Part shown: positions 3,027 to 38,867 of the stretch, one piece after another
Position numbering within the stretch: position 1 is the first letter of the stretch
How the letters are laid out: each line of letters begins with the position of its first letter
DNA from: a virus
Length of the DNA: 41,278 nucleotides
Virus record (IMG/VR): IMGVR_UViG_3300045988_142835
Span: 1 to 41,278 of that record
Reading direction: 5' to 3' (one strand)
Made by a program: the position numbers and the translations under genes
Notes under the pieces: generated by a model
Database searches by the model: none
What the model saw: only the letters and a program-made list of their open reading frames with translations
What the model was told of the DNA's origin: nothing

Positions 3027-3521
3027 ATGGACGGAAAGACAGAAGCCGCAGCTGCGGCGACGTCGGATGAAACTCTCGGCGAGGGCGGCAAGAAGGCCCT
3101 CAGCGCGGAGCGCGACGCCCGCAAAGCCGCAGAGAAGGCCCTCGCGGACATGCGAGGAGAATTCGAGGCATTCAAAGCCTCTATGAACGAGCAAATATCA
3201 AAACTCACGGAGGATCGCGACGCCTCAGCGCTGAAAGCCCTTCGGGGCGAGATCCTGCACGCGTCAGGAGTGCCTGACAGGCTCGCCGCCTACGTGCAGG
3301 GTAAGACCAAGGAGGAGCTGGAAGCCTCCGCGAAGCAAGTCCTCGCGGACTTCACGCCTCCCACACCGACGCCAAGCGGGCAGCAAGAGACGCCGCCCGC
3401 GCCGACTCCGCTCGGCATGCGCCCGGACATGACCCAAGGCAGCTCTTCGGATCTGCCGCTCAACGGCGACCCTCTCACTGAGGCGCTTACCGCCGCTCTC
3501 GGCATCACACAAACAAGCTAA
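3027..3521 (+). CDS. Capsid scaffolding protein
   Basis: 164 aa, charged coiled-coil N-terminus, Pro/Thr-rich linker, immediately upstream of the capsid gene. SD aggagac at 3011-3017. Confidence 0.75.
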   Translation: MDGKTEAAAAATSDETLGEGGKKALSAERDARKAAEKALADMRGEFEAFKASMNEQISKLTEDRDASALKALRGEILHASGVPDRLAAYVQGKTKEELEASAKQVLADFTPPTPTPSGQQETPPAPTPLGMRPDMTQGSSSDLPLNGDPLTEALTAALGITQTS

Positions 3522-3532
3522 GGAGAAAAACA

Positions 3533-4429
3533 ATGGCGATCACCGCCGCAAAGAAGACCACGGATTTTAGTGGTTTTATCAAGCCGGAAATGGCAAAGCC
3601 CATTTTCGATCAGGCTATCAGGCAGTCTGCTATCATGCAGCTTGCCCAGCAGGTCCCGCTCGGCGCGTCCGGCGTCGAGATCCCCGTGGTCACGACCAAG
3701 CCCACGGCGAACTGGACGGCTGAGGCGGGCAAGAAGCACACGACCCAGATGGATCTCGGGCTCGTCAAGATGCAGCCGAAGAAGCTCACCGCGATCGGCG
3801 TGACGTCGACGGAGGTCATTCGCGCCAACCCCGGCGGCTACTCGGAGAAGTTTCGTGAGCTTCTTTCCGAGGCTTTCGCCCGCGCGTTCGACTACGCGGC
3901 CGCTTTCAACGTCGGCGGCGACGGGACGGGCACCGGCCCCTTCGACCACTACCTCGAGGAGACGACGAAGAAGATCACGCTCGGCGCAGATCTTTACTCG
4001 GATTGCGTTTCCGCGATCGGACTTCTCGTCAACGACAAGAAGAAGGCACGTGGTTTCGCCTTCGACGACACGATGGAAGTAGACTTCCTGAACGCGAAGG
4101 ACAAGGAAGGACGCCCGCTGTTCGCGAATCCGGTCTATGACGAGACCGTGACGAGCGTCCAGAAGGGCCGCCTGCTCGGGCGCACGTCCTATATCGCTGA
4201 GGACTTCCGTCACGATAAGGTTGTCGGCTTTGTCGGCGACTGGTCGAAGGCGGCGTGGGGCGTCGTCGGCTCGGGCATCACCTTCGACGTCTCGACCGAG
4301 GCGACGGTCACGATCGGCAGCGAGCTTGTCTCCCTGTTCGAGAACAACCTTGTCGCGATCCGCGCCGAGGCAGAGTACGGATGGGTCATGCAGTCCGCCG
4401 ACCACTTCGCGAAGTTCGAGCGTGCATGA
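3533..4429 (+). CDS. Major capsid protein (HK97 fold, no delta domain)
   Basis: 298 aa after the scaffold gene; sequence typical of actinophage major capsid proteins. SD aaggag at 3520-3525. Confidence 0.9.
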   Translation: MAITAAKKTTDFSGFIKPEMAKPIFDQAIRQSAIMQLAQQVPLGASGVEIPVVTTKPTANWTAEAGKKHTTQMDLGLVKMQPKKLTAIGVTSTEVIRANPGGYSEKFRELLSEAFARAFDYAAAFNVGGDGTGTGPFDHYLEETTKKITLGADLYSDCVSAIGLLVNDKKKARGFAFDDTMEVDFLNAKDKEGRPLFANPVYDETVTSVQKGRLLGRTSYIAEDFRHDKVVGFVGDWSKAAWGVVGSGITFDVSTEATVTIGSELVSLFENNLVAIRAEAEYGWVMQSADHFAKFERA

Positions 4430-4611
4430 TGGCGATCGTGAGGGAACCCGTAGAAACGGTCGATCTTATCTCACCGTCCGGCTCGCTCGCGACCGTCGAC
4501 GCACGCATCGCCGAACAGTACCTCACGTCGGGCTGGACGCCCGCCGCCGGGTACGGCGAAAAGTCAGAAACGCCTGAAACGGCGGCGGACAAGGACAAAA
4601 AGACCAAGTAG
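4426..4611 (+). CDS. Small hypothetical head-associated protein (61 aa)
   Basis: ATGA start/stop overlap with the capsid gene. This is the C-terminal part of track ORF 4255..4611. Lys-rich tail. Confidence 0.5.
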   Translation: MMAIVREPVETVDLISPSGSLATVDARIAEQYLTSGWTPAAGYGEKSETPETAADKDKKTK

Positions 4612-5425: not shown

Positions 5426-5795
5426 CGTCGATCTAACCGAGGTTCGCGAGCTCGCAGTGGTCTTTTCCCGTGTGCCAGACCGGCTGAACGAGAAAATCCG
5501 CCCGGCTATCAAAAAAGCCGGAGTGAACATCAAAAACCAGCTGCGCGACGAAATGGCGCGCTCACGTCATTTTCGGGCCGCCCCGTCGATAAGCTTCGAC
5601 GTGATCGACGGCGGGCTCGGCGTCGAAGTCGGCCCCCGCAAACAAGGCGCGGGCAACCTCGCGAACATCGCCTACTTCGGCGGCGTGCACGGCGGAGGCG
5701 CGACCGTGCCTGACCCGAAAGGCGCGCTCGAAACCGAGGCGCAGAATTTCGAGGATTGGGTAGGGAAAGCGATCGAAGGGCTTCTCAATGGATGA
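5418..5795 (+). CDS. HK97 gp10-like neck / tail completion protein
   Basis: 125 aa; sequence resembles the HK97 gp10 family (NIAYFGGVHGGG region); overlapping start. Confidence 0.65.
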   Translation: MVDVDLTEVRELAVVFSRVPDRLNEKIRPAIKKAGVNIKNQLRDEMARSRHFRAAPSISFDVIDGGLGVEVGPRKQGAGNLANIAYFGGVHGGGATVPDPKGALETEAQNFEDWVGKAIEGLLNG

Positions 5796-6186
5796 AATCA
5801 TTGCAGCGCTTCGCACGCTCGGCTACAAGGTGTGGGACACAGACGCTACAGGCGCAGACCTTAAGCTCGATTCCCTCCCCTACCTGCTGGTGCTCGGCTC
5901 TTCCGGGGAAGCGTCCCGTGAGCGAACCTACTGCGACCGGGACGCCGTCGACGAAATCACCGTCCGGCACGTGGGCGCTACACGGCAGCAAGTCGAAGCA
6001 CTCGCCGCACGGACAAGCCGAATCCTCGACCGCTCTCGCCTAACAGGAACCGGTTTGATCGTCGACGTCGTGCGCACACACGTGCGCGCCGCCGCGCATG
6101 ACCCGGAAGTCACAATACCGGGCACCTCCCAGCACCCGATATTCCTCGATCACGTCTACCAGGCGTGGACTCAAAAGACTAGATAG
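5788..6186 (+). CDS. Tail terminator-like protein
   Basis: 132 aa, the last connector gene before the major tail gene. Assigned by position. Confidence 0.55.
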   Translation: MDEIIAALRTLGYKVWDTDATGADLKLDSLPYLLVLGSSGEASRERTYCDRDAVDEITVRHVGATRQQVEALAARTSRILDRSRLTGTGLIVDVVRTHVRAAAHDPEVTIPGTSQHPIFLDHVYQAWTQKTR

Positions 6187-16090: not shown

Positions 16091-16587
16091 GGCGACGCCG
16101 GGTGAGTCTCATGGAAAAGCTGCTCGTGAACCCTGAGTTCATCGGCGCTACGGTCTCGCTCTTGTCGGGTGTGGCGCTTTGGGTTGGCGTGCTGGTCCGC
16201 CGGGCGCTCACCCGGCTTCAAGCCTCGCATGAGGAGACGAAGGCGGACGTGGCTCGGGCGGCTACGGCCGCCGAGTCTGCCGCCGTACAGGTGAACAACA
16301 CGCACACGACTAATTTGCGCGATGATCTTGATCGAGTGATTGCCGGGCTGGAAAGAGTGCAGTTCTCGATCGATGAATCGGACGCGAAAGATACCCAATG
16401 GCGTGAGGATCATGCGAAAAAGCATGACGAGGAGCGGCGCGACCGTGCGGATCGCGACACGCGGAACGAGACGCAGATCGACATGCTGCGCCGGGACGTT
16501 CAGCAGCTCACGGAGCAGTCGGCGCGGGAGCATGAGCTCCTGCACCAGCGGATCAACCGCATAAAAGAAAAAGGCGGGCTGGACTAG
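16087..16587 (+). CDS. Membrane-anchored coiled-coil protein (lysis accessory candidate)
   Basis: GTGA overlap with the holin stop. One N-terminal TM (FIGATVSLLSGVALWVGVLV), then about 120 aa of charged coiled coil. Alternative start ATG 16111. Confidence 0.55.
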   Translation: MRRRRVSLMEKLLVNPEFIGATVSLLSGVALWVGVLVRRALTRLQASHEETKADVARAATAAESAAVQVNNTHTTNLRDDLDRVIAGLERVQFSIDESDAKDTQWREDHAKKHDEERRDRADRDTRNETQIDMLRRDVQQLTEQSAREHELLHQRINRIKEKGGLD

Positions 16588-16708
16588 CCCGCGAGCGCCT
16601 GCTAGACTGTGGAGTGCACCAGATGGTGTTTTAGCTCCCGGCGCGGCGGTGCGTGCTGTACCGGGTTTATGCGACTGCTAGGACCTGAAATCCTAGTGCG
16701 TTGACTGC

Positions 16709-16746
16709 GAGGGGGGACCCATTGGGTCCCCCCTCTGCTTTCGTTT
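16709..16746. terminator. Strong terminator between the convergent late operon and the leftward accessory genes
   Basis: Perfect 12-bp stem GAGGGGGGACCC/GGGTCCCCCCTC with loop ATT, followed by TGCTTTCGTTT on the + strand. Confidence 0.75.
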
Positions 16747-17377
16747 ACGGGCGGTTTTTCAGCCATTCGCTGGGGGACATCATCCCCTGCCCGCCGTTTC
16801 TCAGGCGGGAAGCTCCCGCCGCCTGAGTAATCCCCGTGACGCGCGAGCACGCCACTTGGGTGAGGCCAGGATGCATGGCGCAAAGCCACCGGACTAGCAT
16901 CGTCCAGTGCTTCGGCTTCGCGCCACGCAACGCCTCAACAACGTCGTCCGTGAAAACGTCGGCGTATTTTTCGGGGATCACGCCCAGCAGATCCCTTTCT
17001 CTGGCGCGGCTTCTGCGATGGGCGTCTGCGGCGCAGACTCGGCATTGGACTGCCCCGGTGGTGCGGATCCTCCGCCCGTACTTCCTCAGGGAATGTCCGC
17101 GGGAGCACATGGCGTCCGCGTCGACGTCTTCCAGCTCATACGGCACGCGGGTTTCCGACATGTGCGACGGGTTCACGCATGCGGGGTTCCCACACGCGAC
17201 GGGGAAGAGACGAGGCGGGGCGTTTCTCCCGGTCACCGCCTCATAGACAAGTTTTCTAACGCCCCTGTATCCCTTTTCCGGGATGAGAACTCGCGGGGAC
17301 GAATCGTACGCGACTTCCCCGTACCAGGGCCAGCACGCCGTCTCTGCGGCGCGGGCCTCGTAGTTCCTGTAGTCCAT
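16745..17377 (-). CDS. Degenerate His-Me finger (HNH_3-like) protein with Zn-loop and C-terminal HTH
   Basis: Start MDYRNYE one nt after the upstream stop. CWPWYGEV...GYRGV and VACGNPACVNPSHM resemble the HNH_3 signature but lack the usual His/Asp. CSRGH...CRVC loop; HTH CSRVTGITQAAGASRL. Confidence 0.55.
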   Translation of the reverse strand: MDYRNYEARAAETACWPWYGEVAYDSSPRVLIPEKGYRGVRKLVYEAVTGRNAPPRLFPVACGNPACVNPSHMSETRVPYELEDVDADAMCSRGHSLRKYGRRIRTTGAVQCRVCAADAHRRSRARERDLLGVIPEKYADVFTDDVVEALRGAKPKHWTMLVRWLCAMHPGLTQVACSRVTGITQAAGASRLRNGGQGMMSPSEWLKNRP

Positions 17378-17378
17378 C

Positions 17379-17762
17379 TCAGATCCTATCCTCGGCGGCT
17401 TCGAGAACGTCGTCGAAATCTGAGCCAGAGTAGAAAATGTCGACAAGTTCGCCGACAACCTCGAAGAATTCCTCGTCGTCGTCGATGATCTCGGCGGTCT
17501 CGGGGAGGATCAGCACCTCGCCCAAGGTGGCGTCCACGGGGCGGTCGGGGGACTTGGGTCCCTCGATCTTGACGAGGACCGGGGATCCGGCGTCGATGCC
17601 GGATGTGGCGACGTAGGCGGCGAGTTCAGCGAGCGTCCGGCACCCGCTGACGCCCCGGCGGACTTCATCATCCGCGCCGCCCATGGGGTAGGACCACTGG
17701 TTCTCGGCGACGGTGAGGTCGGCGACGTTGCGGTCTTTGTCTTGGATCCTGTAGGCGATCAT
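17379..17762 (-). CDS. Hypothetical acidic protein A (127 aa)
   Basis: MIAYRIQDKDRNV... ATG 17762 preceded by GGAAAGGAAG. The upstream part of track ORF 17379..17864 covers the promoter/leader. Confidence 0.6.
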   Translation of the reverse strand: MIAYRIQDKDRNVADLTVAENQWSYPMGGADDEVRRGVSGCRTLAELAAYVATSGIDAGSPVLVKIEGPKSPDRPVDATLGEVLILPETAEIIDDDEEFFEVVGELVDIFYSGSDFDDVLEAAEDRI

Positions 17763-17778
17763 TTCGATCTTCCTTTCC

Positions 17779-17840
17779 GTCTTGCTGGGACCTTCCCTTG
17801 CTGACACTTCTAGTCTACAGGCTTGCAGCACACACTGCAA
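17779..17840 (-). promoter_or_regulatory. Cassette A: promoter TTGCAG-17-TAGACT plus 5' leader stem-loop
   Basis: Minus sense: -35 17840-17835, -10 17817-12, then GTC agcaa GGGA agg TCCC agcaa GAC (17805-17779). Confidence 0.6.
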
Positions 17841-17848
17841 GCCTGTAG
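17815..17848. repeat. 34-bp perfect palindrome (14-bp arms, 6-nt spacer)
   Basis: CTACAGGCTTGCAG cacaca CTGCAAGCCTGTAG. Overlaps the -35/spacer/-10 of cassette A and lies 13 nt past the stop of gene 17861..18235. Confidence 0.9.
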
Positions 17849-17860
17849 GTGTGGGGCGAG

Positions 17861-18235
17861 TCACTTATAATCGTGGAGGCGGGCGTACCCGGCCTCCACG
17901 GAGATCCCCGAAGCGCGCGAGCAGTCAGCGATCGATGCTCCACGGTGCCGGTCCACTAGCCGCCGCACGATCGCCGACCACTCCGCCGGGCAATCGACGA
18001 CGCCGCGCAGCTCGGCGACGTCGTTCTCCGAAATGCCCTCCTCGCTTCGGAGCCCGGCCACCCATTTGCCGATGGTGAGCCGGTGGACGCCGGTCGCCTC
18101 CGCGATCTCCGTCGCTGTCTTCCCGCTCTGCCACGCACGCTGCACGCGCAGCGCGAGCCTGGCTTTGGCGTCATCGGCGACTTTCTGGGCGGCCTTGTAG
18201 GACGCGGCGGCGTCCGCGAGCGCAGCATCGCTCAT
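17861..18235 (-). CDS. DNA-binding protein with two HTH motifs
   Basis: 124 aa; KTATEIAEATGVHRLTIGKWV and CSRASGISVEAGYARL. ATGA overlap with the upstream gene. Confidence 0.6.
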   Translation of the reverse strand: MSDAALADAAASYKAAQKVADDAKARLALRVQRAWQSGKTATEIAEATGVHRLTIGKWVAGLRSEEGISENDVAELRGVVDCPAEWSAIVRRLVDRHRGASIADCSRASGISVEAGYARLHDYK

Positions 18236-18633
18236 TTAATATTCTCCTTCCATTCGGCCCGGACGTTGACGCCGTGCAGCGCTAGCCCGGTCATGATCGC
18301 GGCGACGGCGGCGGAGTGCTCATAAAGCGTCTCGCCGCCGCCTTCGTCCGCAGCGTGTGCTTCGGGAGTGCGGTAGGCGTGGATGGTCACGCCATCGCAC
18401 GCTTCCTCGCCCTCTTCGAAGAGAAGTTCAAGCGTCCCGTCGATCCCGGACATTACCCGGTCGACGAACCGCCGCCACCATTTGGTGACAGACTCGGCGG
18501 CGTCGTCGGGGACGGGGACGCGCCCAGACTCCCAATCGTTGAGCGTATCCTTCGACACGCCGAGCCGGGCGGCGACGTGGCCTTTCGGGATGCCCATCGC
18601 CCGCCGCCGAAAGGCGAGCGTTGCACCGGTCAT
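18232..18633 (-). CDS. XRE-family HTH protein with unknown C-terminal domain
   Basis: 133 aa; N-terminal RRRAMGIPKGHVAARLGVSKDTLNDWESGR. SD AGAAAGGA upstream. Confidence 0.65.
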   Translation of the reverse strand: MTGATLAFRRRAMGIPKGHVAARLGVSKDTLNDWESGRVPVPDDAAESVTKWWRRFVDRVMSGIDGTLELLFEEGEEACDGVTIHAYRTPEAHAADEGGGETLYEHSAAVAAIMTGLALHGVNVRAEWKENIK

Positions 18634-18652
18634 TTTGATTCCTTTCTGTAGT

Positions 18653-18678
18653 GCGGGGGAGCCCTAGGGCTCCCCCGC
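18653..18678. terminator. Perfect GC-rich hairpin downstream of gene B
   Basis: GCGGGGGAGCCC ta GGGCTCCCCCGC. The T-rich tail is on the + strand only. Resembles the 16709 hairpin and its flank. Confidence 0.55.
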
Positions 18679-18687
18679 TTCCTTCGT

Positions 18688-19338
18688 TTACTCGGTTGCG
18701 GCGCGGATCTCGCCGATCAACCAGTTAGCGTACTTTGCGGCAAGATCAGACTTCCTCTGATCGTCGGCAAGCTCGTTCCCTTCGAGGGAATCCTGGAAAT
18801 TTTGATCGAAGTAGGGGGCGGGCTCCCCGTCCTCGCGGTAGTAGGTGGAGATGAAATAGAATCCCGCACCTTCGAAATCCTGGAAGTCGACCGACACGCC
18901 GAACCCTCCAACTTCGATTCCCCTGGCGGACCCGTCTTCGTCGGCGAAGATTTCGGTTTCCTCGATCTCGGCTTCGGGGAATTCAACTTCCACCCTTTCG
19001 TAGATATCGTCAAGAATTTCTCGGGGGAAGTCGAAGTCTTCCTGCCAGCCGAGAAGGTACTCCACGAAGTGGTCGACGATTGCCTCATCGTAGTTGTCGG
19101 ATTCGGCACTGGAGGGGATGATTTTCATTCCCTCGTAGTCGAGGGTGACGTGGCACGAGTCGTTAGGCCACGCGATTCCTGGGACGATGCGGAGGTTGCC
19201 TTCGCGGTCTTTTGTGACTTCCACGAAGCGTTGGTGGTTCGAGACCACCGTATCCCCTTCGGTTTTCGTGTCCCTATCAAGGTAGTCCTTGAGAGAAACC
19301 GCTACCTGGATTTCTTCGATGAGTTCTTTGGTTTCCAT
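18688..19338 (-). CDS. Hypothetical highly acidic protein B (216 aa)
   Basis: METKELIEEI...; hand count 54 D/E versus 17 K/R. Visibly lower GC than its neighbours. Has its own promoter and hairpin. Confidence 0.7.
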   Translation of the reverse strand: METKELIEEIQVAVSLKDYLDRDTKTEGDTVVSNHQRFVEVTKDREGNLRIVPGIAWPNDSCHVTLDYEGMKIIPSSAESDNYDEAIVDHFVEYLLGWQEDFDFPREILDDIYERVEVEFPEAEIEETEIFADEDGSARGIEVGGFGVSVDFQDFEGAGFYFISTYYREDGEPAPYFDQNFQDSLEGNELADDQRKSDLAAKYANWLIGEIRAATE

Positions 19339-19355
19339 TTGGATCAGTCCTTTCT

Positions 19356-19421
19356 GTCTTGCTGGGAGGCTTTCTCCCTTGCTGACGCCTCTAGTCTACA
19401 GGCGCGATGCACGTACGTCAA
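19356..19421 (-). promoter_or_regulatory. Cassette B: promoter TTGACG-17-TAGACT plus 5' leader stem-loop
   Basis: Minus sense: -35 19421-16, -10 19398-93, then GTC agcaa GGGAG aaagc CTCCC agcaa GAC (19386-19356). Confidence 0.65.
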
Positions 19422-19522
19422 ACCTTTGCGACAAAAAGTGGCACACGTCATGTCGTTGTGAAAAGCCCCAGCACTACCCCCACACTACCGCCAGCGCAAT
19501 CGTGTACCCGTTTTGTGCGATT

Positions 19523-19544
19523 TGGCTAAAAGAGTGGCTAAAAA
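19523..19544 (+). repeat. Arm-type site candidates, pair 1 (TGGCTAAAAG ag TGGCTAAAAA)
   Basis: Direct repeat with 12-bp periodicity. Confidence 0.6.
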
Positions 19545-19708
19545 CGACACCTTTCGCACCCATTGAAAGAGCCGAAACGTTCGAGATGCAAACCGCGAGC
19601 GTGCGCGAAAGGCGATGGGATAGGAGAGAGAACTCGCTCACCACCCTAGCGACATCGGGTTGATAACGCCATGCGATAGACTGGAACCGCGCAAACCCGC
19701 AGAATACC

Positions 19709-19730
19709 GCCAAAAGATGACGCTTTTGGC
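19709..19730. repeat. Candidate attP core: GCCAAAAG atgacg CTTTTGGC
   Basis: Perfect 8-bp inverted repeats around a 6-bp spacer, the geometry expected for tyrosine-recombinase core sites. Confidence 0.4.
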
Positions 19731-19772
19731 ATTGCGAAAAGCCGTGGTGGTACGCTGGGAACACGCCCACAA

Positions 19773-19794
19773 TGGCTAAAAGAATGGCTAAAAG
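19773..19794 (+). repeat. Arm-type site candidates, pair 2 (TGGCTAAAAG aa TGGCTAAAAG)
   Basis: Same 10-mer and spacing as pair 1, 15 nt upstream of the int start. Confidence 0.6.
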
Positions 19795-19808
19795 AAAGGA
19801 TCACGGGA

Positions 19809-21026
19809 ATGGCTCGCCCCAAATACCAGCTGCCCCACGGCGAGGGCAGCTTCTACCACCGCACAAGCGACGACCGGTGGGTCGGCGTCCTCGAAGCCGG
19901 ATGGACCGCGCGCGGCACCCGCCGCCGCATCACCGTCACCGACAAAAACAAGCAGCGCTGCTGGGACAAGCTGACCGTCAAGCGGAAGCAGCTCGCGAAG
20001 GAAGGCGCAGCGCCCGACGGCGTGCGCGCCGGAGCCACCGTCGCCTCATGGGCCACCGAATGGCTCGCACGCGGCGAGAAATCCATGAAACCGTCCACGT
20101 ACAAAGCGTACGCGGCTACCGTGCGCACCTGGATCATCCCGACGGTCGGACGCCGCCGCCTCGCCCAGCTCGGCCCGCAGGACATGCGCGCCCTCACCGG
20201 CGCGATGGACGCCGCCGGACGCTCGTCGACGTCGCAGGGGCAGGCGCAGCGGCTCCTCGCGAAAATACTCCGCGACGCGATCGTCGAGGGACACGACGTG
20301 CCCCAGCGGGCGCTCCTCGCCCCCGCCCCGAAAAACGCCGTCACCGCCCGGTGCGCGATCCCGTTCGAGGACGCCATGCGAATCCTCGACGTCGTGCGCG
20401 CCCGCCCGGACGCCTCCCGATGGGTCGCCGCCCTGTTGCAGGGGCAGCGGCAGGGCGAAACGCTCGGCCTCACATGGGAGTGCGTAGACCTTGACGCCGG
20501 GACGATCACGGTCGCCTGGCAGCTGCAAAAGCTCAAGTACACGGACCGGGAGGCGGGGGCTTTTCGCGTCCCGGCGGGCTATGAGACTCGGCAGTTGCAC
20601 GGCGCGTGGCATCTGGTCCGCCCGAAATCGAGGGCGGGCTGGCGGACGACGCCGATCGTTCCGTGGATGCGCGCCCAGCTTGAGGCGATCCGCCCGGCGG
20701 ACGCGACCGGGCTCGTGTGGCACCGGCCCGACGGTCGCCCGCTCATCCCAGAGGAGGATCGACGCGAGTGGCGGGCGATCCAGGACGCCGCCGGAGTCCA
20801 CAAGGGCGGCAGCGGCACTCCTGAGGACCCATGGGTCTACTACGTGCTCCACGAGGCGAGGCACACGACGGCGACGCTTCTCCTCGCGGCGCACGTGGAC
20901 CCTGAGGTGATCAAAGCGATTCTCGGTCACTCATCGATCGTCACCACCGCTGGGTATCAGCACGTCGACGTCGGCATGGCCCGGTCCGCGCTCGACGGGC
21001 TCGCGTCCCGGCTCGGCCTCCAATAG
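19809..21026 (+). CDS. int: Tyrosine integrase
   Basis: 405 aa; catalytic pattern R (LQGQRQGETLGL), HxxR (LHEARHTTAT), H...Y (LGHSSIVTTAGYQHV). SD GAAAGGA upstream. Confidence 0.9.
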   Translation: MARPKYQLPHGEGSFYHRTSDDRWVGVLEAGWTARGTRRRITVTDKNKQRCWDKLTVKRKQLAKEGAAPDGVRAGATVASWATEWLARGEKSMKPSTYKAYAATVRTWIIPTVGRRRLAQLGPQDMRALTGAMDAAGRSSTSQGQAQRLLAKILRDAIVEGHDVPQRALLAPAPKNAVTARCAIPFEDAMRILDVVRARPDASRWVAALLQGQRQGETLGLTWECVDLDAGTITVAWQLQKLKYTDREAGAFRVPAGYETRQLHGAWHLVRPKSRAGWRTTPIVPWMRAQLEAIRPADATGLVWHRPDGRPLIPEEDRREWRAIQDAAGVHKGGSGTPEDPWVYYVLHEARHTTATLLLAAHVDPEVIKAILGHSSIVTTAGYQHVDVGMARSALDGLASRLGLQ

Positions 21027-21063
21027 AAAAGAACCCCCTCCCGATATGGGAGGGGGCTTTTTC
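21027..21063. terminator. Bidirectional intrinsic terminator between int and gene C
   Basis: GAAAAGAA CCCCCTCCC gatat GGGAGGGGG CTTTTTC: 9-bp stem with an A-run on one side and a T-run on the other. Confidence 0.85.
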
Positions 21064-21554
21064 TACTTGAGCGAGTTCACACATTGCCTCGCCCATTGTC
21101 TACCGCCCGGGTAGACTTCCATGCGGACGCCCGGCGGGAAAAACCGGGACGATTTGATCTTGGTCGTGTGGACGCCCGCCGCGAGGTCGTCGACGTCGAT
21201 GTGGAGTTCCTGGTCGCCGCGCCGCCAGATGTGCGGCGCGAGGTCCGCGTCGACGTCGATCCCCTGCCGGTCGATTTCCGCCTCGATGAATTCGACGAGC
21301 GACTTGTAGGGCTCGTAGTCGTCGCGCCAGCCGTTCAGGTAGGCGGCGGCCTCGTCGACTCGCTCCTCGTCGGTTTTCGACGACGGCTTCCCGTCGCCAA
21401 ACTCCCACACAAGCTTGTCCGCGCCGTCGTCCCAGACGTTGACGTACCGGGACGCGACCCAGACTTGGTAGAGCCCAACATGCTCGGTGATTTGCGCCCC
21501 GGGCACGGCGTCGCGAATCTCGTCGGCGAACCATTCGGCGTCAGTCTCGATCAT
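21063..21554 (-). CDS. Hypothetical acidic protein C (163 aa)
   Basis: MIETDAEWFADEIRD...; hand count 33 D/E versus 18 K/R. ATG 21554 overlaps the stop of a 10-codon upstream ORF. The upstream part of track ORF 21063..21659 covers the leader. Confidence 0.6.
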   Translation of the reverse strand: MIETDAEWFADEIRDAVPGAQITEHVGLYQVWVASRYVNVWDDGADKLVWEFGDGKPSSKTDEERVDEAAAYLNGWRDDYEPYKSLVEFIEAEIDRQGIDVDADLAPHIWRRGDQELHIDVDDLAAGVHTTKIKSSRFFPPGVRMEVYPGGRQWARQCVNSLK

Positions 21555-21583
21555 TCTCCCGCCACCCTTGAGGTAGTTTCCAT
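21551..21583 (-). CDS. Upstream leader ORF METTSRVAGE (10 codons), coupled to gene C
   Basis: ATG 21583 lies 8 nt after GAAAGGA. Its stop TGA overlaps the gene C start as ATGA. The first 8 nt, ATGGAAAC, match the start of gene B. Confidence 0.4.
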   Translation of the reverse strand: METTSRVAGE

Positions 21584-21600
21584 TTTTGTTTTCCTTTCTT

Positions 21601-21666
21601 GTCCGTGTGGGGGACCGTCCCCCTCGCTGACGTCTATAGTCTAGTAGTGTAGGCTTCACCCCTCAA
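21601..21666 (-). promoter_or_regulatory. Cassette C: promoter TTGAGG-17-TAGACT plus 5' leader stem-loop
   Basis: Minus sense: -35 21666-61, -10 21643-38, then GTC agcga GGGGGA cgg TCCCCC acacg GAC (21631-21601). Confidence 0.6.
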
Positions 21667-21700
21667 CTCCGCGTGTGTGAACTACTACACAACTTTAGGC

Positions 21701-21768
21701 TTGACGTGGTGGTTGCGAACCCATAGACTAGAGATGTCAACACGGAGGGACAAGCCCTCCACCAAGAC
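21701..21768 (+). promoter_or_regulatory. Cassette D: promoter TTGACG-17-TAGACT plus 5' leader stem-loop
   Basis: -35 21701-06, -10 21724-29, then GTC aacac GGAGGG acaag CCCTCC accaa GAC (21736-21768). Divergent from cassette C. Confidence 0.65.
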
Positions 21769-21786
21769 CCATAGGAAGGAAGTCAA

Positions 21787-22578
21787 ATGGACTCCGCAAT
21801 CATCATCCCAGATTTCAACATCGTCTCTCCCCGCCGCGTTCCTGCGGTGCGCGGCTACTGGTTCTCCGAAAGCCAGGAAGACCTAGACGCCCGCGAAGCC
21901 CGGCTCCGCGCCGGGAACTTCGTCCACCTACACAAGCGCGGCGAGCAGCCCCGCGACCTCGAAAAGTCTCCGTACCCCAAGCCTTGGGCTTGGGAAGCAC
22001 TCAAAGCGGCGGAAGCGGCAGAAGCCGCCGCACACGAGGCCGAGCGCTGGATCTCCGACCTCGAAACAGCTGTAGGCCGCACAATCGCCGACGCCAAAGG
22101 CGTTGACCAGTCGCGGGCGGACTGGTTCACGCCCAAGATCGAAATCGATCTCAATGGTCCTTATGGGATGCAAATGGTCTGGATCAAGTCTGATCGCGGG
22201 CTGAAGGTCCGCACATCGGCTGATAGCCTGACCCTTTCTGAAGCTGTGCGCCTCACCGGGTATCTTCAGGAACGCCTGGATGGCTGGGAGCGCGAGATCC
22301 TTGGATCGTTCCCGGCGGACGCGCTCGGACTCGCGGCGTCATACGGCACCGCGCTCGGCGAGCGAGCCACCCATATCCTTCTCTACGCCGACGGGGAGTG
22401 CATTGGGCACCTCCCGGCGACCGGCACCTACGAGGAAAACCTGGCGGAGGCGCAGCGCGTCTACCGCGAGATAGAAGCCTCTTGGGCAATGGTCACGCCC
22501 AAGTACCCCCGCTCACCGTGGTCGGCGGACTCTGCCGAGTCCCCGTGGACGCCGGACACGCCAGAGTTGGCGGAGTGA
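21787..22578 (+). CDS. Hypothetical protein D (263 aa)
   Basis: SD GGAAGGAAG upstream. Central region VWIKSDRGLKV...GYLQERLDGWEREI resembles B and C. Confidence 0.65.
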   Translation: MDSAIIIPDFNIVSPRRVPAVRGYWFSESQEDLDAREARLRAGNFVHLHKRGEQPRDLEKSPYPKPWAWEALKAAEAAEAAAHEAERWISDLETAVGRTIADAKGVDQSRADWFTPKIEIDLNGPYGMQMVWIKSDRGLKVRTSADSLTLSEAVRLTGYLQERLDGWEREILGSFPADALGLAASYGTALGERATHILLYADGECIGHLPATGTYEENLAEAQRVYREIEASWAMVTPKYPRSPWSADSAESPWTPDTPELAE

Positions 22579-22678
22579 CCTACCGCCCGGGGTTGGCGTA
22601 GTCGGGATCGTTCCCCGACCCCGGGCCTATCCTCCCGTGCGACGGGCGCGCGGGAGACTGATTGAAAGGAAAACAAAA

Positions 22679-22996
22679 ATGGATTACGTGAAGAACGACG
22701 CCCAATGGGCGATGGTAACGCTCGGGATGATGATCAGGGTTGAGGGGATCGAGCCGGTCATGGAGAACCGGAAGAAGATCCCAGCGAACCTCATTAGCTG
22801 CACTGAGCGCCTTTGTGGAGTGAAGATGACTCCCGAGCGGATCGCTCAGTCCGTCTCCTACGCGACCAATCTCGCCGACGACGATCCCGTCGGCGACAAG
22901 ATGCGGGAGGAGGCAGACGCCTACTCCAAGGCGTACAACGCCCAGAGGCAAACTGACCTCCAATGGGCGGACGCCATTCGAAACGGGGCCGTCTAG
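22679..22996 (+). CDS. Hypothetical protein E (105 aa)
   Basis: MDYVKNDAQW...; ATG 22679 after GAAAGGAAAACAAAA. Shares a transcription unit with D. Confidence 0.6.
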   Translation: MDYVKNDAQWAMVTLGMMIRVEGIEPVMENRKKIPANLISCTERLCGVKMTPERIAQSVSYATNLADDDPVGDKMREEADAYSKAYNAQRQTDLQWADAIRNGAV

Positions 22997-23006
22997 CAGC
23001 AAGTTT

Positions 23007-23095
23007 GAAGCCCGCTCCTCGTGCGTGTGAGGGGCGGGCTTCTTTGCGCCCGAAGTGCGTGTTTCGGGCGGTTCAGGGTTGTTTTTTGGGGTTTT
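23007..23095 (+). terminator. Tandem hairpin terminators after gene E
   Basis: 14-bp stem 23007-20/23029-42 and 8-bp stem 23047-54/23063-70. Both have the loop GTGCGTGT and are followed by T-runs (GTTGTTTTTTGGGGTTTT). Confidence 0.7.
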
Positions 23096-23124: not shown

Positions 23125-23373
23125 TTACGCGGTTCGCCGTTCCGCAAGTTCGAGGACGTCGACGGGCGCGAGGTCGAGTGTCCGGCAGATTGACTGGAAC
23201 TCGCCGATGGTGACGGGCGATTCCATGGCGAGGATCTTGCGGAGGCGTCCGCGTGTGATCCCCGCGTAGTCGGCGAGTGAGCGCACGCTCATGCTGACGG
23301 CGCTCATGCGCCGCGTGACTTGTCCAACAATATCTTCCTCGACGGAGGAAGTTTCCAGCCGCTTCGTTCCCAT
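23125..23373 (-). CDS. CI-like immunity repressor candidate (XRE HTH, 82 aa)
   Basis: SVRSLADYAGITRGRLRKIL HTH; divergent from a cro-like gene across a 128-bp operator region. Confidence 0.65.
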   Translation of the reverse strand: MGTKRLETSSVEEDIVGQVTRRMSAVSMSVRSLADYAGITRGRLRKILAMESPVTIGEFQSICRTLDLAPVDVLELAERRTA

Positions 23374-23388
23374 ACCCTCAGTGAATCA

Positions 23389-23403
23389 TATCTGAGTCGG
23401 ATA
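23389..23403. promoter_or_regulatory. Operator candidate O1 (TATCTGAGTCGGATA)
   Basis: TATC-N7-GATA within the direct repeat CATATCTGAGTCGGATACAC. Overlaps a minus-strand TATGAT -10 candidate (23390-85). Confidence 0.5.
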
Positions 23404-23412
23404 CACAATGGG

Positions 23413-23442
23413 TTGCGTTACCCATATCAGATCTGATACACT
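23413..23442 (+). promoter_or_regulatory. Early rightward promoter candidate TTGCGT-18-TACACT
   Basis: -35 23413-18, -10 23437-42. Operator O2 fills the spacer. Confidence 0.5.
23425..23438. promoter_or_regulatory. Operator candidate O2 (perfect palindrome TATCAGATCTGATA)
   Basis: 14-bp perfect palindrome within CATATCAGATCTGATACAC, a repeat of the O1 context. Confidence 0.55.
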
Positions 23443-23456
23443 CTTGTGCGCAAGGC

Positions 23457-23472
23457 GGGCTCAATTGAGCCC
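23457..23472. promoter_or_regulatory. 16-bp perfect palindrome GGGCTCAATTGAGCCC in the cro leader
   Basis: Lies between the -10 candidate and the cro SD (AGGAAGGAGG). Either a second operator type or an RNA hairpin. Confidence 0.4.
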
Positions 23473-23501
23473 ACCACTCACCACAACAGGAAGGAGGCTC
23501 A

Positions 23502-23717
23502 ATGAGCATCGCGAGCGAAATCCGCGCCGAAATGGCCCGGAAAAAGCTCACCGTCGCCGAACTGGCGGACGGCGCGGGCATCTCCCGCGCGTCCCTCAGC
23601 CGCAAGCTCCACGAGCACACCGAGTTAACACTCGCCGAGCTTGTGCGGATCGCGTACATCCTCGGCACCACCGCATCGGATCTCATGCGCCGGACAGAGG
23701 TCGGGGAAGCCGCATGA
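23502..23717 (+). CDS. Cro-like HTH regulator (71 aa)
   Basis: LTVAELADGAGISRASLSRKL HTH; strong SD; first gene of the rightward operon. Confidence 0.7.
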   Translation: MSIASEIRAEMARKKLTVAELADGAGISRASLSRKLHEHTELTLAELVRIAYILGTTASDLMRRTEVGEAA

Positions 23718-24025
23718 GAGCCCGCGAAGAAGCCGCCGCTTACGCGGGCCGTGCTTGGCTCGAAATGAGCCGCGCCGACCGCCGCCGGGCTGTGAGGCTC
23801 ATGCGCCGGATCCGTGCCAACAAAGCGGCTCGGCAGCTCAGGCCCGGTTGCAAGGGGCCGTCGGCGTTCCTGCAAGCCGCTCACTGGCGGCTCCTGGCCG
23901 AGTTTTTCGCCCTCATCGAAAAGAGCGAGCGGCGACTCTATACGTCCAGGGAAGCTCGGGAAACCGCCGAAAAATGCGCGTACATCTACCACACGCAAGC
24001 CAACAAGAAAGGAAAACCGGAATGA
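23714..24025 (+). CDS. Hypothetical protein (103 aa)
   Basis: ATGA overlap with cro. MRAREEAAAYAGRAWLEMSRADRRRAVRLMRR...; paralogous to the next gene. Confidence 0.55.
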   Translation: MRAREEAAAYAGRAWLEMSRADRRRAVRLMRRIRANKAARQLRPGCKGPSAFLQAAHWRLLAEFFALIEKSERRLYTSREARETAEKCAYIYHTQANKKGKPE

Positions 24026-24336: not shown

Positions 24337-24619
24337 GACGCCGGAGGAGAAGCTGCTGTTGGCGGAGAACCGCCGCCGTATGCGGCAAGTCGACGCCCAG
24401 ATGGACGTCGTTCGCGCGAAGATCGCGCCGGACCTCGCCGAGCTGGACCGGCTCACCAACGTGAAGGGCGAGCTCGTCCGGGAGAACGCGCGCATCCAGT
24501 GCGCGTCCGCCGCCAGGATCGCACGCCGTATCAACGAGCGTGCACTCGCGGCTAAAAACAACGCCCCCGCCGCCGGGGATGGCGACGAGGGCAGAAAGGA
24601 AAACGAAAATGGGAAATGA
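24329..24619 (+). CDS. Hypothetical coiled-coil protein (96 aa)
   Basis: ATG 24329 lies 8 nt after GAGGAGGG and overlaps the upstream stop. Confidence 0.5.
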   Translation: MRETPEEKLLLAENRRRMRQVDAQMDVVRAKIAPDLAELDRLTNVKGELVRENARIQCASAARIARRINERALAAKNNAPAAGDGDEGRKENENGK

Positions 24620-38762: not shown

Positions 38763-38820
38763 TAGACTCCGCAGTCGGGGACACACACCACAATCCCATA
38801 ACCCGGTCCCCGGACTGCGG
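38763..38820 (+). promoter_or_regulatory. -10-like TAGACT followed immediately by a 14-bp bulged hairpin (late control region candidate)
   Basis: TAGACT 38763-68 with no recognisable -35. CCGCAGTCGGGGAC (38769-82) pairs with GTCCCCgGACTGCGG (38806-20). Confidence 0.35.
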
Positions 38821-38867
38821 TACCCACCCACACCCCACACCGGCGCAGAGGGGAGCCACACCACCCC

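Follow-up and report, generated by a model that had tools for sequence, protein, structure and literature searches.

Morons of lambdoid phages, according to the Juhala/Hendrix concept, are units of promoter, open reading frame (ORF), and terminator that are expressed from the prophage, and the element of phage SP82 is known as a polypurine 5′ stabilizer. The STAB-SD of Bacillus (Agaisse and Lereclus, 1996) is among the references listed in PMC3997798. That paper describes the ompA, papA, and aprE mRNAs as stabilized by 5′-terminal stem-loops, lists Emory et al. (1992), Bouvet and Belasco (1992), Bricker and Belasco (1999), and Hambraeus et al. (2002) for such stabilizers, and gives at least two unpaired 5′ nucleotides (nt) as the requirement of B. 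subtilis RppH. In Cluster K mycobacteriophages, the 13-bp SAS motif GGGATAGGAGCCC is found 3-7 bp before start codons, and according to the authors, RNA pairing is not supported by the arms of its extended form (ESAS; PMC3203893). In this study, a virus record of 41,278 nt (IMG/VR record IMGVR_UViG_3300045988_142835, positions 1 to 41,278; hereafter the window) was analyzed with respect to a promoter-leader cassette that recurs around the integrase gene (int) and attP, and that places a small hairpin directly behind a predicted promoter. The four elements are read as paralogous copies of a portable cassette, each heading an autonomous accessory (moron) unit in the lysogeny region of a temperate actinophage, with a probability of roughly 50%.

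Re-reading and alignment confirmed the four cassettes, A to D, at the positions and strands proposed by the original prediction (Table 1). When read in transcription sense, all four follow the layout TTGNNG-17-TAGACT-N6-GTC-N5-stem-loop-stem-N5-GAC, which occurs at these four sites only in the whole 41-kb window. The core TAGACT-N6-GTC was found four times against 0.21 expected by chance, and none of 100 shuffles reached that count. With a covariance model built from relatives of the phage, the four copies reached 45-59 bits, compared with 13 bits for the runner-up site in the window, and an independent repeat finder matched cassette A to cassette B over 51 nt (78%) and to cassette D over 58 nt (71%). 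All four stems, of 4-6 bp with loops of 3-5 nt, are perfectly paired, and in copies A and B a 2-bp GC helix is possible within the 5x5 internal loop. On the 3′ side of GAC, 2-5 nt are followed by a Shine-Dalgarno sequence (SD; GAAAGGA or AGGAAGGA), about 8 nt, and the ATG. The entire linker from hairpin to ATG, which carries the SD AGAAAGGA, is A-rich and 16-19 nt long, and it leads into the ATG and two shared codons.

Table 1. Cassettes, cargo genes, and associated features of the window, with the analogous cassettes of two more distant phages (L036 and L103).
Feature	Position	Strand	Remarks
Predicted promoter of cassette A, TTGCAG-17-TAGACT	17812..17840	minus	-35 17840-17835, -10 17817-17812
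Hairpin of cassette A, GUC AGCAA GGGA agg UCCC AGCAA GAC	17779..17805	minus	predicted +1 G 17805; 45.5 bits
Predicted promoter of cassette B, TTGACG-17-TAGACT	19393..19421	minus	-35 19421-19416, -10 19398-19393
Hairpin of cassette B, GUC AGCAA GGGAG aaagc CUCCC AGCAA GAC	19356..19386	minus	predicted +1 G 19386; 59.4 bits
Predicted promoter of cassette C, TTGAGG-17-TAGACT	21638..21666	minus	-35 21666-21661, -10 21643-21638
Hairpin of cassette C, GUC AGCGA GGGGGA cgg UCCCCC ACACG GAC	21601..21631	minus	predicted +1 G 21631; 53.9 bits
Predicted promoter of cassette D, TTGACG-17-TAGACT	21701..21729	plus	-35 21701-21706, -10 21724-21729
Hairpin of cassette D, GUC AACAC GGAGGG acaag CCCUCC ACCAA GAC	21736..21768	plus	predicted +1 G 21736; 47.5 bits
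Cargo gene A, 127 aa, ORFan	17379..17762	minus	SD GGAAAGGAAG at 17778-17769
Cargo gene B, 216 aa, ORFan	18688..19338	minus	headed by cassette B
Cargo gene C, 163 aa, ORFan	21063..21554	minus	ends at bidirectional terminator 21032-21058
Cargo gene D, 263 aa, ORFan	21787..22578	plus	headed by cassette D
Upstream ORF METTSRVAGE-stop, 10 codons, opened by cassette C ATG (21583)	21551..21583	minus	stop overlaps gene C start (21554) as ATGA
Perfect 12-bp inverted repeat ACAGGCTTGCAG-N6-CTGCAAGCCTGT	17817..17846		over promoter A -35 and spacer
Palindrome TGTGAACTACTACACA	21676..21691		exact midpoint of divergent promoters C and D
L036 analogue cassettes	3343-3480, 1600-1740	minus	
L103 analogue cassettes	5536-5680, 5976-6120, 4396-4540	minus	

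The same cassette was found in about 15 related metagenomic phage contigs, which yielded 39 distinct cassette variants and 26 distinct leaders. The stems had been claimed to differ from copy to copy and to remain paired, and this held not only for the four copies but also for the relatives, with compensatory changes: across the 26 leaders (alignment A2), 97.8% of the stem cells were paired, compared with 43-63% when partners were slid. Stem length among relatives ranged from 3 to 6 bp, and the loops varied in both sequence (AGG, CGG, CAC, CAG, AAAGC, ACAAG, and AUAAG) and length (3-5 nt). Covariation, as originally claimed, was overstated; in the apical stem, G-C/A-U double changes occurred at three of the six pairs. 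The claim did not extend to the outer GUC/GAC helix, which was invariant in 26 of 26 leaders and is therefore uninformative on covariation, and independent compensatory events were few because whole stem modules have been exchanged between cassettes. The purine-only 5′ arm is the expected outcome of a mutational path through G-C, G-U, and A-U pairs. Insertions and deletions were tolerated in the stem and the loop, while none was observed in the 6-nt gap after the -10 hexamer or in the internal loop, the size of which was always 5x5. In addition, the span from GTC to GAC varied from 27 to 33 nt, the flanks were direct repeats (AGCAA..AGCAA) and not inverted ones, and the hairpin orientation always followed transcription. 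These features favor an RNA element over a DNA site for a dimeric binder, and the hairpin is quite probably a selected RNA structure within the promoter-leader cassette.

For every one of the four promoter types, ten variants were compared. The TTG..G and TAGACT motifs did not change among them, and the first six bases of the spacer and the 6-nt discriminator varied; this conservation pattern is that of a promoter, the activity of which is predicted. Promoters B and D match the consensus at nine of 12 positions. The fixed -10 hexamer, 17-nt spacer, and 6-nt gap noted in the original prediction were upheld, with no change in the length of the gap across the 39 variants. The base before GTC was always T or C, and the predicted +1 was always G. 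In sigma-70-type promoters, the -10 hexamer occupies -12 to -7, and a pyrimidine at -1 followed by a purine at +1 is preferred. Given the promoter geometry and this rule, the transcript most likely starts at the G of GTC, which is the seventh nucleotide past the -10 hexamer and the first paired base. In folds of the first 45 nt from the predicted +1, nucleotides 1-3 were paired with a probability of 0.81-0.98 (0.97 for the outer helix of cassette A), whereas only about 10% of random 45-nt windows of the genome had their first three bases paired at 0.8 or above. The SD region was 77-99% unpaired in the same nascent leader folds.

A mechanism can be proposed from this arrangement. A primary-sigma-type promoter, TTGNNG-17-TAGACT, would start the transcript at the G of GTC, and an interrupted hairpin would form from the first nucleotide, composed of a 3-bp GUC/GAC base, the 5x5 loop, an apical stem of 4-6 G/A:C/U pairs, and a loop of 3-5 nt. 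The 5′ triphosphate would be buried in this hairpin, which would hinder 5′-end-dependent decay by an RppH-type pyrophosphohydrolase, RNase E, or RNase J. Additionally, self-folding of the leader would leave the ribosome site single-stranded regardless of the cargo. The outcome would be robust and context-independent expression of often-exchanged genes, which we infer to take place in the lysogen. Chances are put at about even that the hairpin acts in cis in such a manner, by protection or insulation. Actinobacterial RNase E cleaves 5′ of cytidines, preferentially in 5′ untranslated regions (PMC10641625), and the linker would offer few such sites because it consists of 82% purine and only 12% C (6% T; C makes up 32% of the genome).

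The cassette-bearing group is narrow; pattern and protein scans found the cassette only in contigs of the IMG/VR dataset 3300045988 and in human-metagenome assemblies of ENA. Among 185,579 representative genomes, the cassette pattern had no match, and no prophage copy was found there. A hairpin-only pattern, which covered the AGCAA-flanked types only, returned 61 scattered single chance matches in these genomes, with none in arrays and no homologue among them. The cassette was not found in GenBank phages, and the relatives identified through the lysin (L104-L106) carried no comparable cassettes. Searches of Rfam returned no hits at the gathering threshold across the whole window and, under permissive settings, two chance-level matches in 16500-21900 (E 0.13-0.19). 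Similarly, no description of such a cassette was found by full-text literature searches, consistent with the original impression that no element of this layout had been described.

The idea of autonomous, moron-like units gained support from the turnover of cargo. A predicted promoter of its own precedes the ORF of each unit, and the cargo is replaced among related phages: at the same four slots around attP and int, the cassettes head at least 11 unrelated ORFan protein families, none of which had a Pfam match. Unrelated cargo proteins nevertheless share their first codons among relatives L001-L034, such as ATGGAAACC for MET, ATGATCACC for MIT, ATGATCGCC for MIA, and ATGACCACC for MTT, which suggests either recombination junctions inside the early codons or selection on the early coding sequence. 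The parts of the cassette were also reassorted, as the stem classes (GGGA, GGGAG, GGGGGA, and GGAGGG) occurred behind different promoter types and the SD spacers were found with different cargo. The breakpoints of exchange were scattered along the cassette without a single site. The exchange looks like ordinary homologous recombination, which is compatible with an RNA function and does not replace it. Because the cargo is unrelated and the homology runs through the ATG and two codons, the cassette can be regarded as both a portable expression module and a homology patch for cargo exchange.

Analogous leaders were observed in more distant phages. Contigs L036/L037 and L103, whose integrases are 53-60% identical to that of the window, carry accessory genes at the same place beside attP (Table 1). 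Their promoters included TTGCAT-17-TAGAGT with a CCCTAGCG-N-CGCTAGGG palindrome in the spacer (L036), as well as promoters with TATACT, TACACT, TAAACT, and TAGAAT hexamers, and each was followed by 6 nt, a hairpin, an SD, and an ATG. Upon folding, two L036 leaders paired from nucleotide 1 and three L103 leaders from nucleotides 4-6. Two of the latter belong to paralogous cassettes (GGCAAGGGG-loop-CCCCAGCC), with a terminator in front of each. The covariance model scored these sites at chance level (8-12 bits), and, judged by sequence, the L103 and L036 hairpins are analogues and not demonstrable homologues. The presence of unrelated hairpins at or near the same spot points to selection for the architecture and not for a particular sequence.

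Several observations weigh against a protective hairpin at the 5′ end. The start site of the transcripts rests on prediction, and the 3-bp base across the 5x5 loop is the soft spot of the model, as folds of 150 nt cut the outer-helix probability to 0.33-0.58 for A, C, and D. If the outer helix were unformed, 8 nt would be unpaired at the 5′ end, which abolishes protection in the E. coli paradigm, and the L103 analogues leave 3-5 nt unpaired at this end. The individual leader folds (-8 to -16 kcal/mol) had modest z-scores of -1.3 to -2.3, and the covariation rests on four to five stem classes that were swapped as blocks. GUC, GAC, and TAGACT show more invariance than pairing or a -10 hexamer would demand, which hints at sequence-specific recognition or recent common descent. 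Hairpins also precede the SD of non-cassette genes (18645-18670, 22632-22657, 23975-23997, and 24562-24593), and the role of the hairpin may be more general than the capping of 5′ ends.

The invariant base could alternatively be a recognition site, in which GUC/GAC and the A-rich 5x5 loop bind a trans-acting factor, such as an RNA-binding protein encoded by phage or host, a ribonuclease, or a small RNA, that co-regulates the units post-transcriptionally. An invariant GUC/GAC and a fixed 5x5 size beneath an apical stem and loop that vary are the usual signature of a recognized basal module, one element in four units would make a regulon, and a conserved candidate small RNA (16615-16745) lies close by. 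However, the internal-loop sequences differ by class (AGCAA/AGCAA, AGCGA/ACACA, and AACAC/ACCAA), and the invariance could stem from recent descent in one narrow phage group. Moreover, no RNA-binding protein was recognized among the neighbors, where Pfam identified helix-turn-helix (HTH) proteins only, and no specific duplex of the candidate small RNA with leaders A, B, and D was predicted beyond what shuffles gave. Such a factor is considered doubtful. A more elaborate version, in which GUC/GAC and the 5x5 loop are the operator of a dedicated post-transcriptional regulon that switches swappable accessory (possibly defence) genes together and the cassette doubles as a recombination handle, seems distinctly unlikely.

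Accessibility of the ribosome site raises a further alternative, namely that the hairpin works mainly as a translational insulator or standby element. It would hold the G-rich and C-rich bases of the leader in a local fold, keep the SD and AUG accessible for any cargo, and affect mRNA decay little. The largely unpaired SD region of the nascent leader and the highly variable cargo fit this explanation, as does the overlapping short upstream ORF, which would couple translation in copy C. Relatives lack this upstream ORF and have gene C fused directly to the cassette ATG, and the ORF represents either natural translational coupling or an indel or assembly difference. The layout of a hairpin followed by an SD was also found before internal genes, away from 5′ ends, and the repeat finder identified the SD/ATG stretch (AGAAAGGAAAAC..ATGG) as a phage-wide consensus that also precedes non-cassette genes (22664-22682, 24007-24025, and 24594-24612). 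For these two reasons, insulation is plausible as an extra role. As the main role it is quite unlikely, since it leaves the fixed 7-nt distance from the -10 hexamer to the hairpin base in every variant unexplained, and a short unstructured A-rich leader would serve equally well without a hairpin.

An action at the level of DNA, either as a repressor operator or as a conserved linker with no role other than homology for cargo exchange, would require no RNA function. The reassortment of promoter types, stem classes, SD spacers, and cargo, together with the homology through the ATG and two codons of unrelated proteins, would be expected of a homology patch, and any inverted repeat also stays paired as DNA. 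In contrast, an arm spacing of 27-33 nt with direct-repeat flanks is ill-suited to a dimeric DNA binder, exchange with scattered breakpoints is compatible with an RNA function, and homology patches do not account for the unrelated hairpins that L036 and L103 have at or near this position. Such an origin is therefore regarded as very unlikely. It is less credible still that the hairpins are mere passengers of a recently duplicated promoter region: the family is confined to one phage group from mostly one set of human metagenome assemblies and its independent compensatory events are few, but the stems differ and stay paired while loops and promoter spacers drift, indels are tolerated in the stem and loop and absent from the 6-nt gap and 5x5 loop, and analogous hairpins occur in distant phages.

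Other candidate identities were rejected. The linker after the hairpin lacks a U tract and the terminator scan does not report the hairpin, in disagreement with an intrinsic terminator or attenuator, and the stem is too short for an RNase III site. A lambda-type nut/boxB site was dismissed because the loops vary in sequence and length and a hairpin at the predicted +1 leaves no room for a boxA. The SAS/ESAS of Cluster K was excluded by the SAS core, which had no match in the window with up to two mismatches, and an integron attC-like recombination site by breakpoints that are scattered and not fixed. Solitary CRISPR-repeat mimics are RNA anti-CRISPRs that match the repeats of host arrays (PMC10651486); this identity, or an origin from a CRISPR array, was rejected for the AGCAA-flanked types, which had no array hits in the 185,579 genomes. 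Copies of these types in host genomes were ruled out by the same scan.

The window comprises the entire genome of a temperate siphovirus-like phage with a presumed high-GC Gram-positive host. Its G+C content is about 62%, and it has portal, capsid, and tail genes as well as genes for an Amidase_2 lysin and a tyrosine integrase; attP carries arm-type repeats, and a divergent HTH/cro-like switch is located at 23125-23717. Units A to D are positioned between the lysis genes and this immunity switch, around attP and int. No close relatives were found among GenBank phages, where megablast and distant blastn returned integrase fragments only, and the portal homologues carry no organism names. The named relatives of the integrase belong to Actinomycetaceae, including Schaalia (54% identical), Bowdeniella, and Arcanobacterium, and the lysin is 53% identical to that of Arcanobacterium canis, which suggests an Actinomycetaceae-like host. 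None of the four cargo genes had a match in sequence searches of Pfam, PHROGs, PADLOC, NCBIfam, or PDB, and the AlphaFold models that were predicted from single sequences of D and B could not be used, with predicted local distance difference test scores of 42 and 36, respectively.

Each unit had originally been assigned a downstream hairpin or terminator, and two of them end in canonical terminators. Unit C and unit A, the latter composed of gene A and an HNH-like gene, end at terminators with a U tract in the terminator scan (21032-21058 and 16709-16735, respectively). In contrast, the ends of B (18645-18670) and D (23008-23043) are strong hairpins without a proper U tract. In unit B, gene B is followed by the hairpin, which has a 12-bp stem, and then by two HTH genes, beginning with the SD and ATG of 18232..18633. 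In unit D, the second gene (ATG 22680, end 22996) precedes the terminator-like hairpin.

Two inverted repeats are associated with the promoters. The repeat over promoter A directly follows the stop codon of the HTH gene at 17861. Its arms are conserved around a variable 6-bp center, with a compensatory double change in the arms of one relative, and it is likely a terminator of the upstream (B) operon, an operator, or both. The palindrome between promoters C and D is 9 nt from each -35 box, with its center at -52.5 of both predicted starts. It is conserved in ten of ten C/D variants and resembles the CRP/GlxR consensus TGTGA-N6-TCACA, which makes it a candidate site for a dimeric regulator; its single match in the window, against 0.16 expected, is weak when taken alone.

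The attP region includes paired arm-type repeats, TGGCTAAAAGANTGGCTAAAA, 250 bp apart (19523-19545 and 19773-19795). A 45-nt block adjoining promoter B (19466-19510) is nearly invariant in six phages, while the attP stretch 19546-19665 is swapped for other sequence in two relatives. No tRNA or tRNA fragment was found at attP, and the attP core and attB were not identified. The immunity switch (23374-23501) is flanked by an 82-aa HTH gene on the minus strand and a 71-aa cro-like gene on the plus strand. It contains the repeats CATATCTGAGTCGGATACAC and CATATCAGATCTGATACAC, which are likely operators, and its rightward leader also has a hairpin, GGGCTCAATTGAGCCC.

The candidate small RNA, at 16580-16748 (+), occupies the interval that separates the lysis genes from the accessory cluster. 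Behind a promoter-like TGGACT-17-TAGACT, a stretch of about 130 nt forms four hairpins and ends in the strong terminator 16709-16735 with a U-rich tail. The segment had a minimum free energy of -66 kcal/mol (z = -5.3), which none of 200 shuffles equaled in stability, and it was 85-96% conserved in all relatives, with compensatory double changes in four pairs and no Rfam hit. Additionally, a long inverted repeat, CCGCAGTCGGGGAC ... GTCCCCGGACTGCGG, was observed at 38763-38822 (+) directly after another TAGACT hexamer, in a region (36-39 kb) with a strong skew of A over T and C over G.

If the reading of a portable cassette with a protective 5′ hairpin is true, it would represent a natural standard part of promoter, 5′ hairpin, and ribosome-binding site that is reused for many unrelated, exchanged genes, and it would reveal how a moron comes to be expressed reliably in a genomic context that is new to it. 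It would also supply an expression cassette that is ready for use in poorly tractable Actinomycetaceae-like hosts and flag the ORFan cargo as likely expressed from the prophage and as candidates for defence or exclusion.

Compared with lambda nut sites (boxA/boxB), the cassette shares a small hairpin just downstream of phage promoters; however, boxB needs a conserved, N-bound loop, whereas the loops here vary, a boxA is absent, and no N-like protein was recognized. STAB-SD and other polypurine stabilizers likewise have a purine-rich, SD-like run (here GGAGG or GGGAG) near the 5′ end and upstream of the true SD. In the cassette, this run is locked in the 5′ arm of the stem, and ribosome binding would be unlikely unless the stem opens. 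SAS and ESAS are also short, lineage-specific actinophage repeats just 5′ of the starts of non-structural genes, in large intergenic gaps (PMC3203893). They are common to different gene families as well, and in ESAS an inverted repeat, its arms separated by a variable spacer, precedes the SD-like core. Yet the stems of the cassette are 97.8% paired, and SAS is not at a fixed distance from a promoter.

Closer parallels are found in lambdoid morons and in the 5′ stem-loop stabilizers. Like the former, the units are autonomous, with a predicted sigma-70-like promoter of their own and a downstream hairpin or terminator, beside integration and immunity genes, and they are polymorphic among relatives in both presence and cargo. 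Classical morons have no standardized promoter-leader module, in contrast to the one cassette family found here at four slots with homology into the first codons. With E. coli ompA hp1 and papA and B. subtilis aprE, the cassette shares a short hairpin at the predicted extreme 5′ end followed by a single-stranded ribosome-binding region, the retention of structure rather than sequence, and portability to other coding regions. It differs in being one repeated, promoter-fused cassette with four copies per genome and at least 11 cargo families, in its interrupted hairpin (a 3-bp base and a 5x5 loop), and in the lack of sequence homology, and its 5′ end and function are predicted. It probably represents a phage-specific variant of the 5′ stem-loops known to protect mRNA. 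Since 5′-hairpin protection and morons are both established, no new mechanism is opened; the cassette is a lineage-specific instance of a known principle, which is unusual as a standardized, multi-copy, and cargo-independent module.

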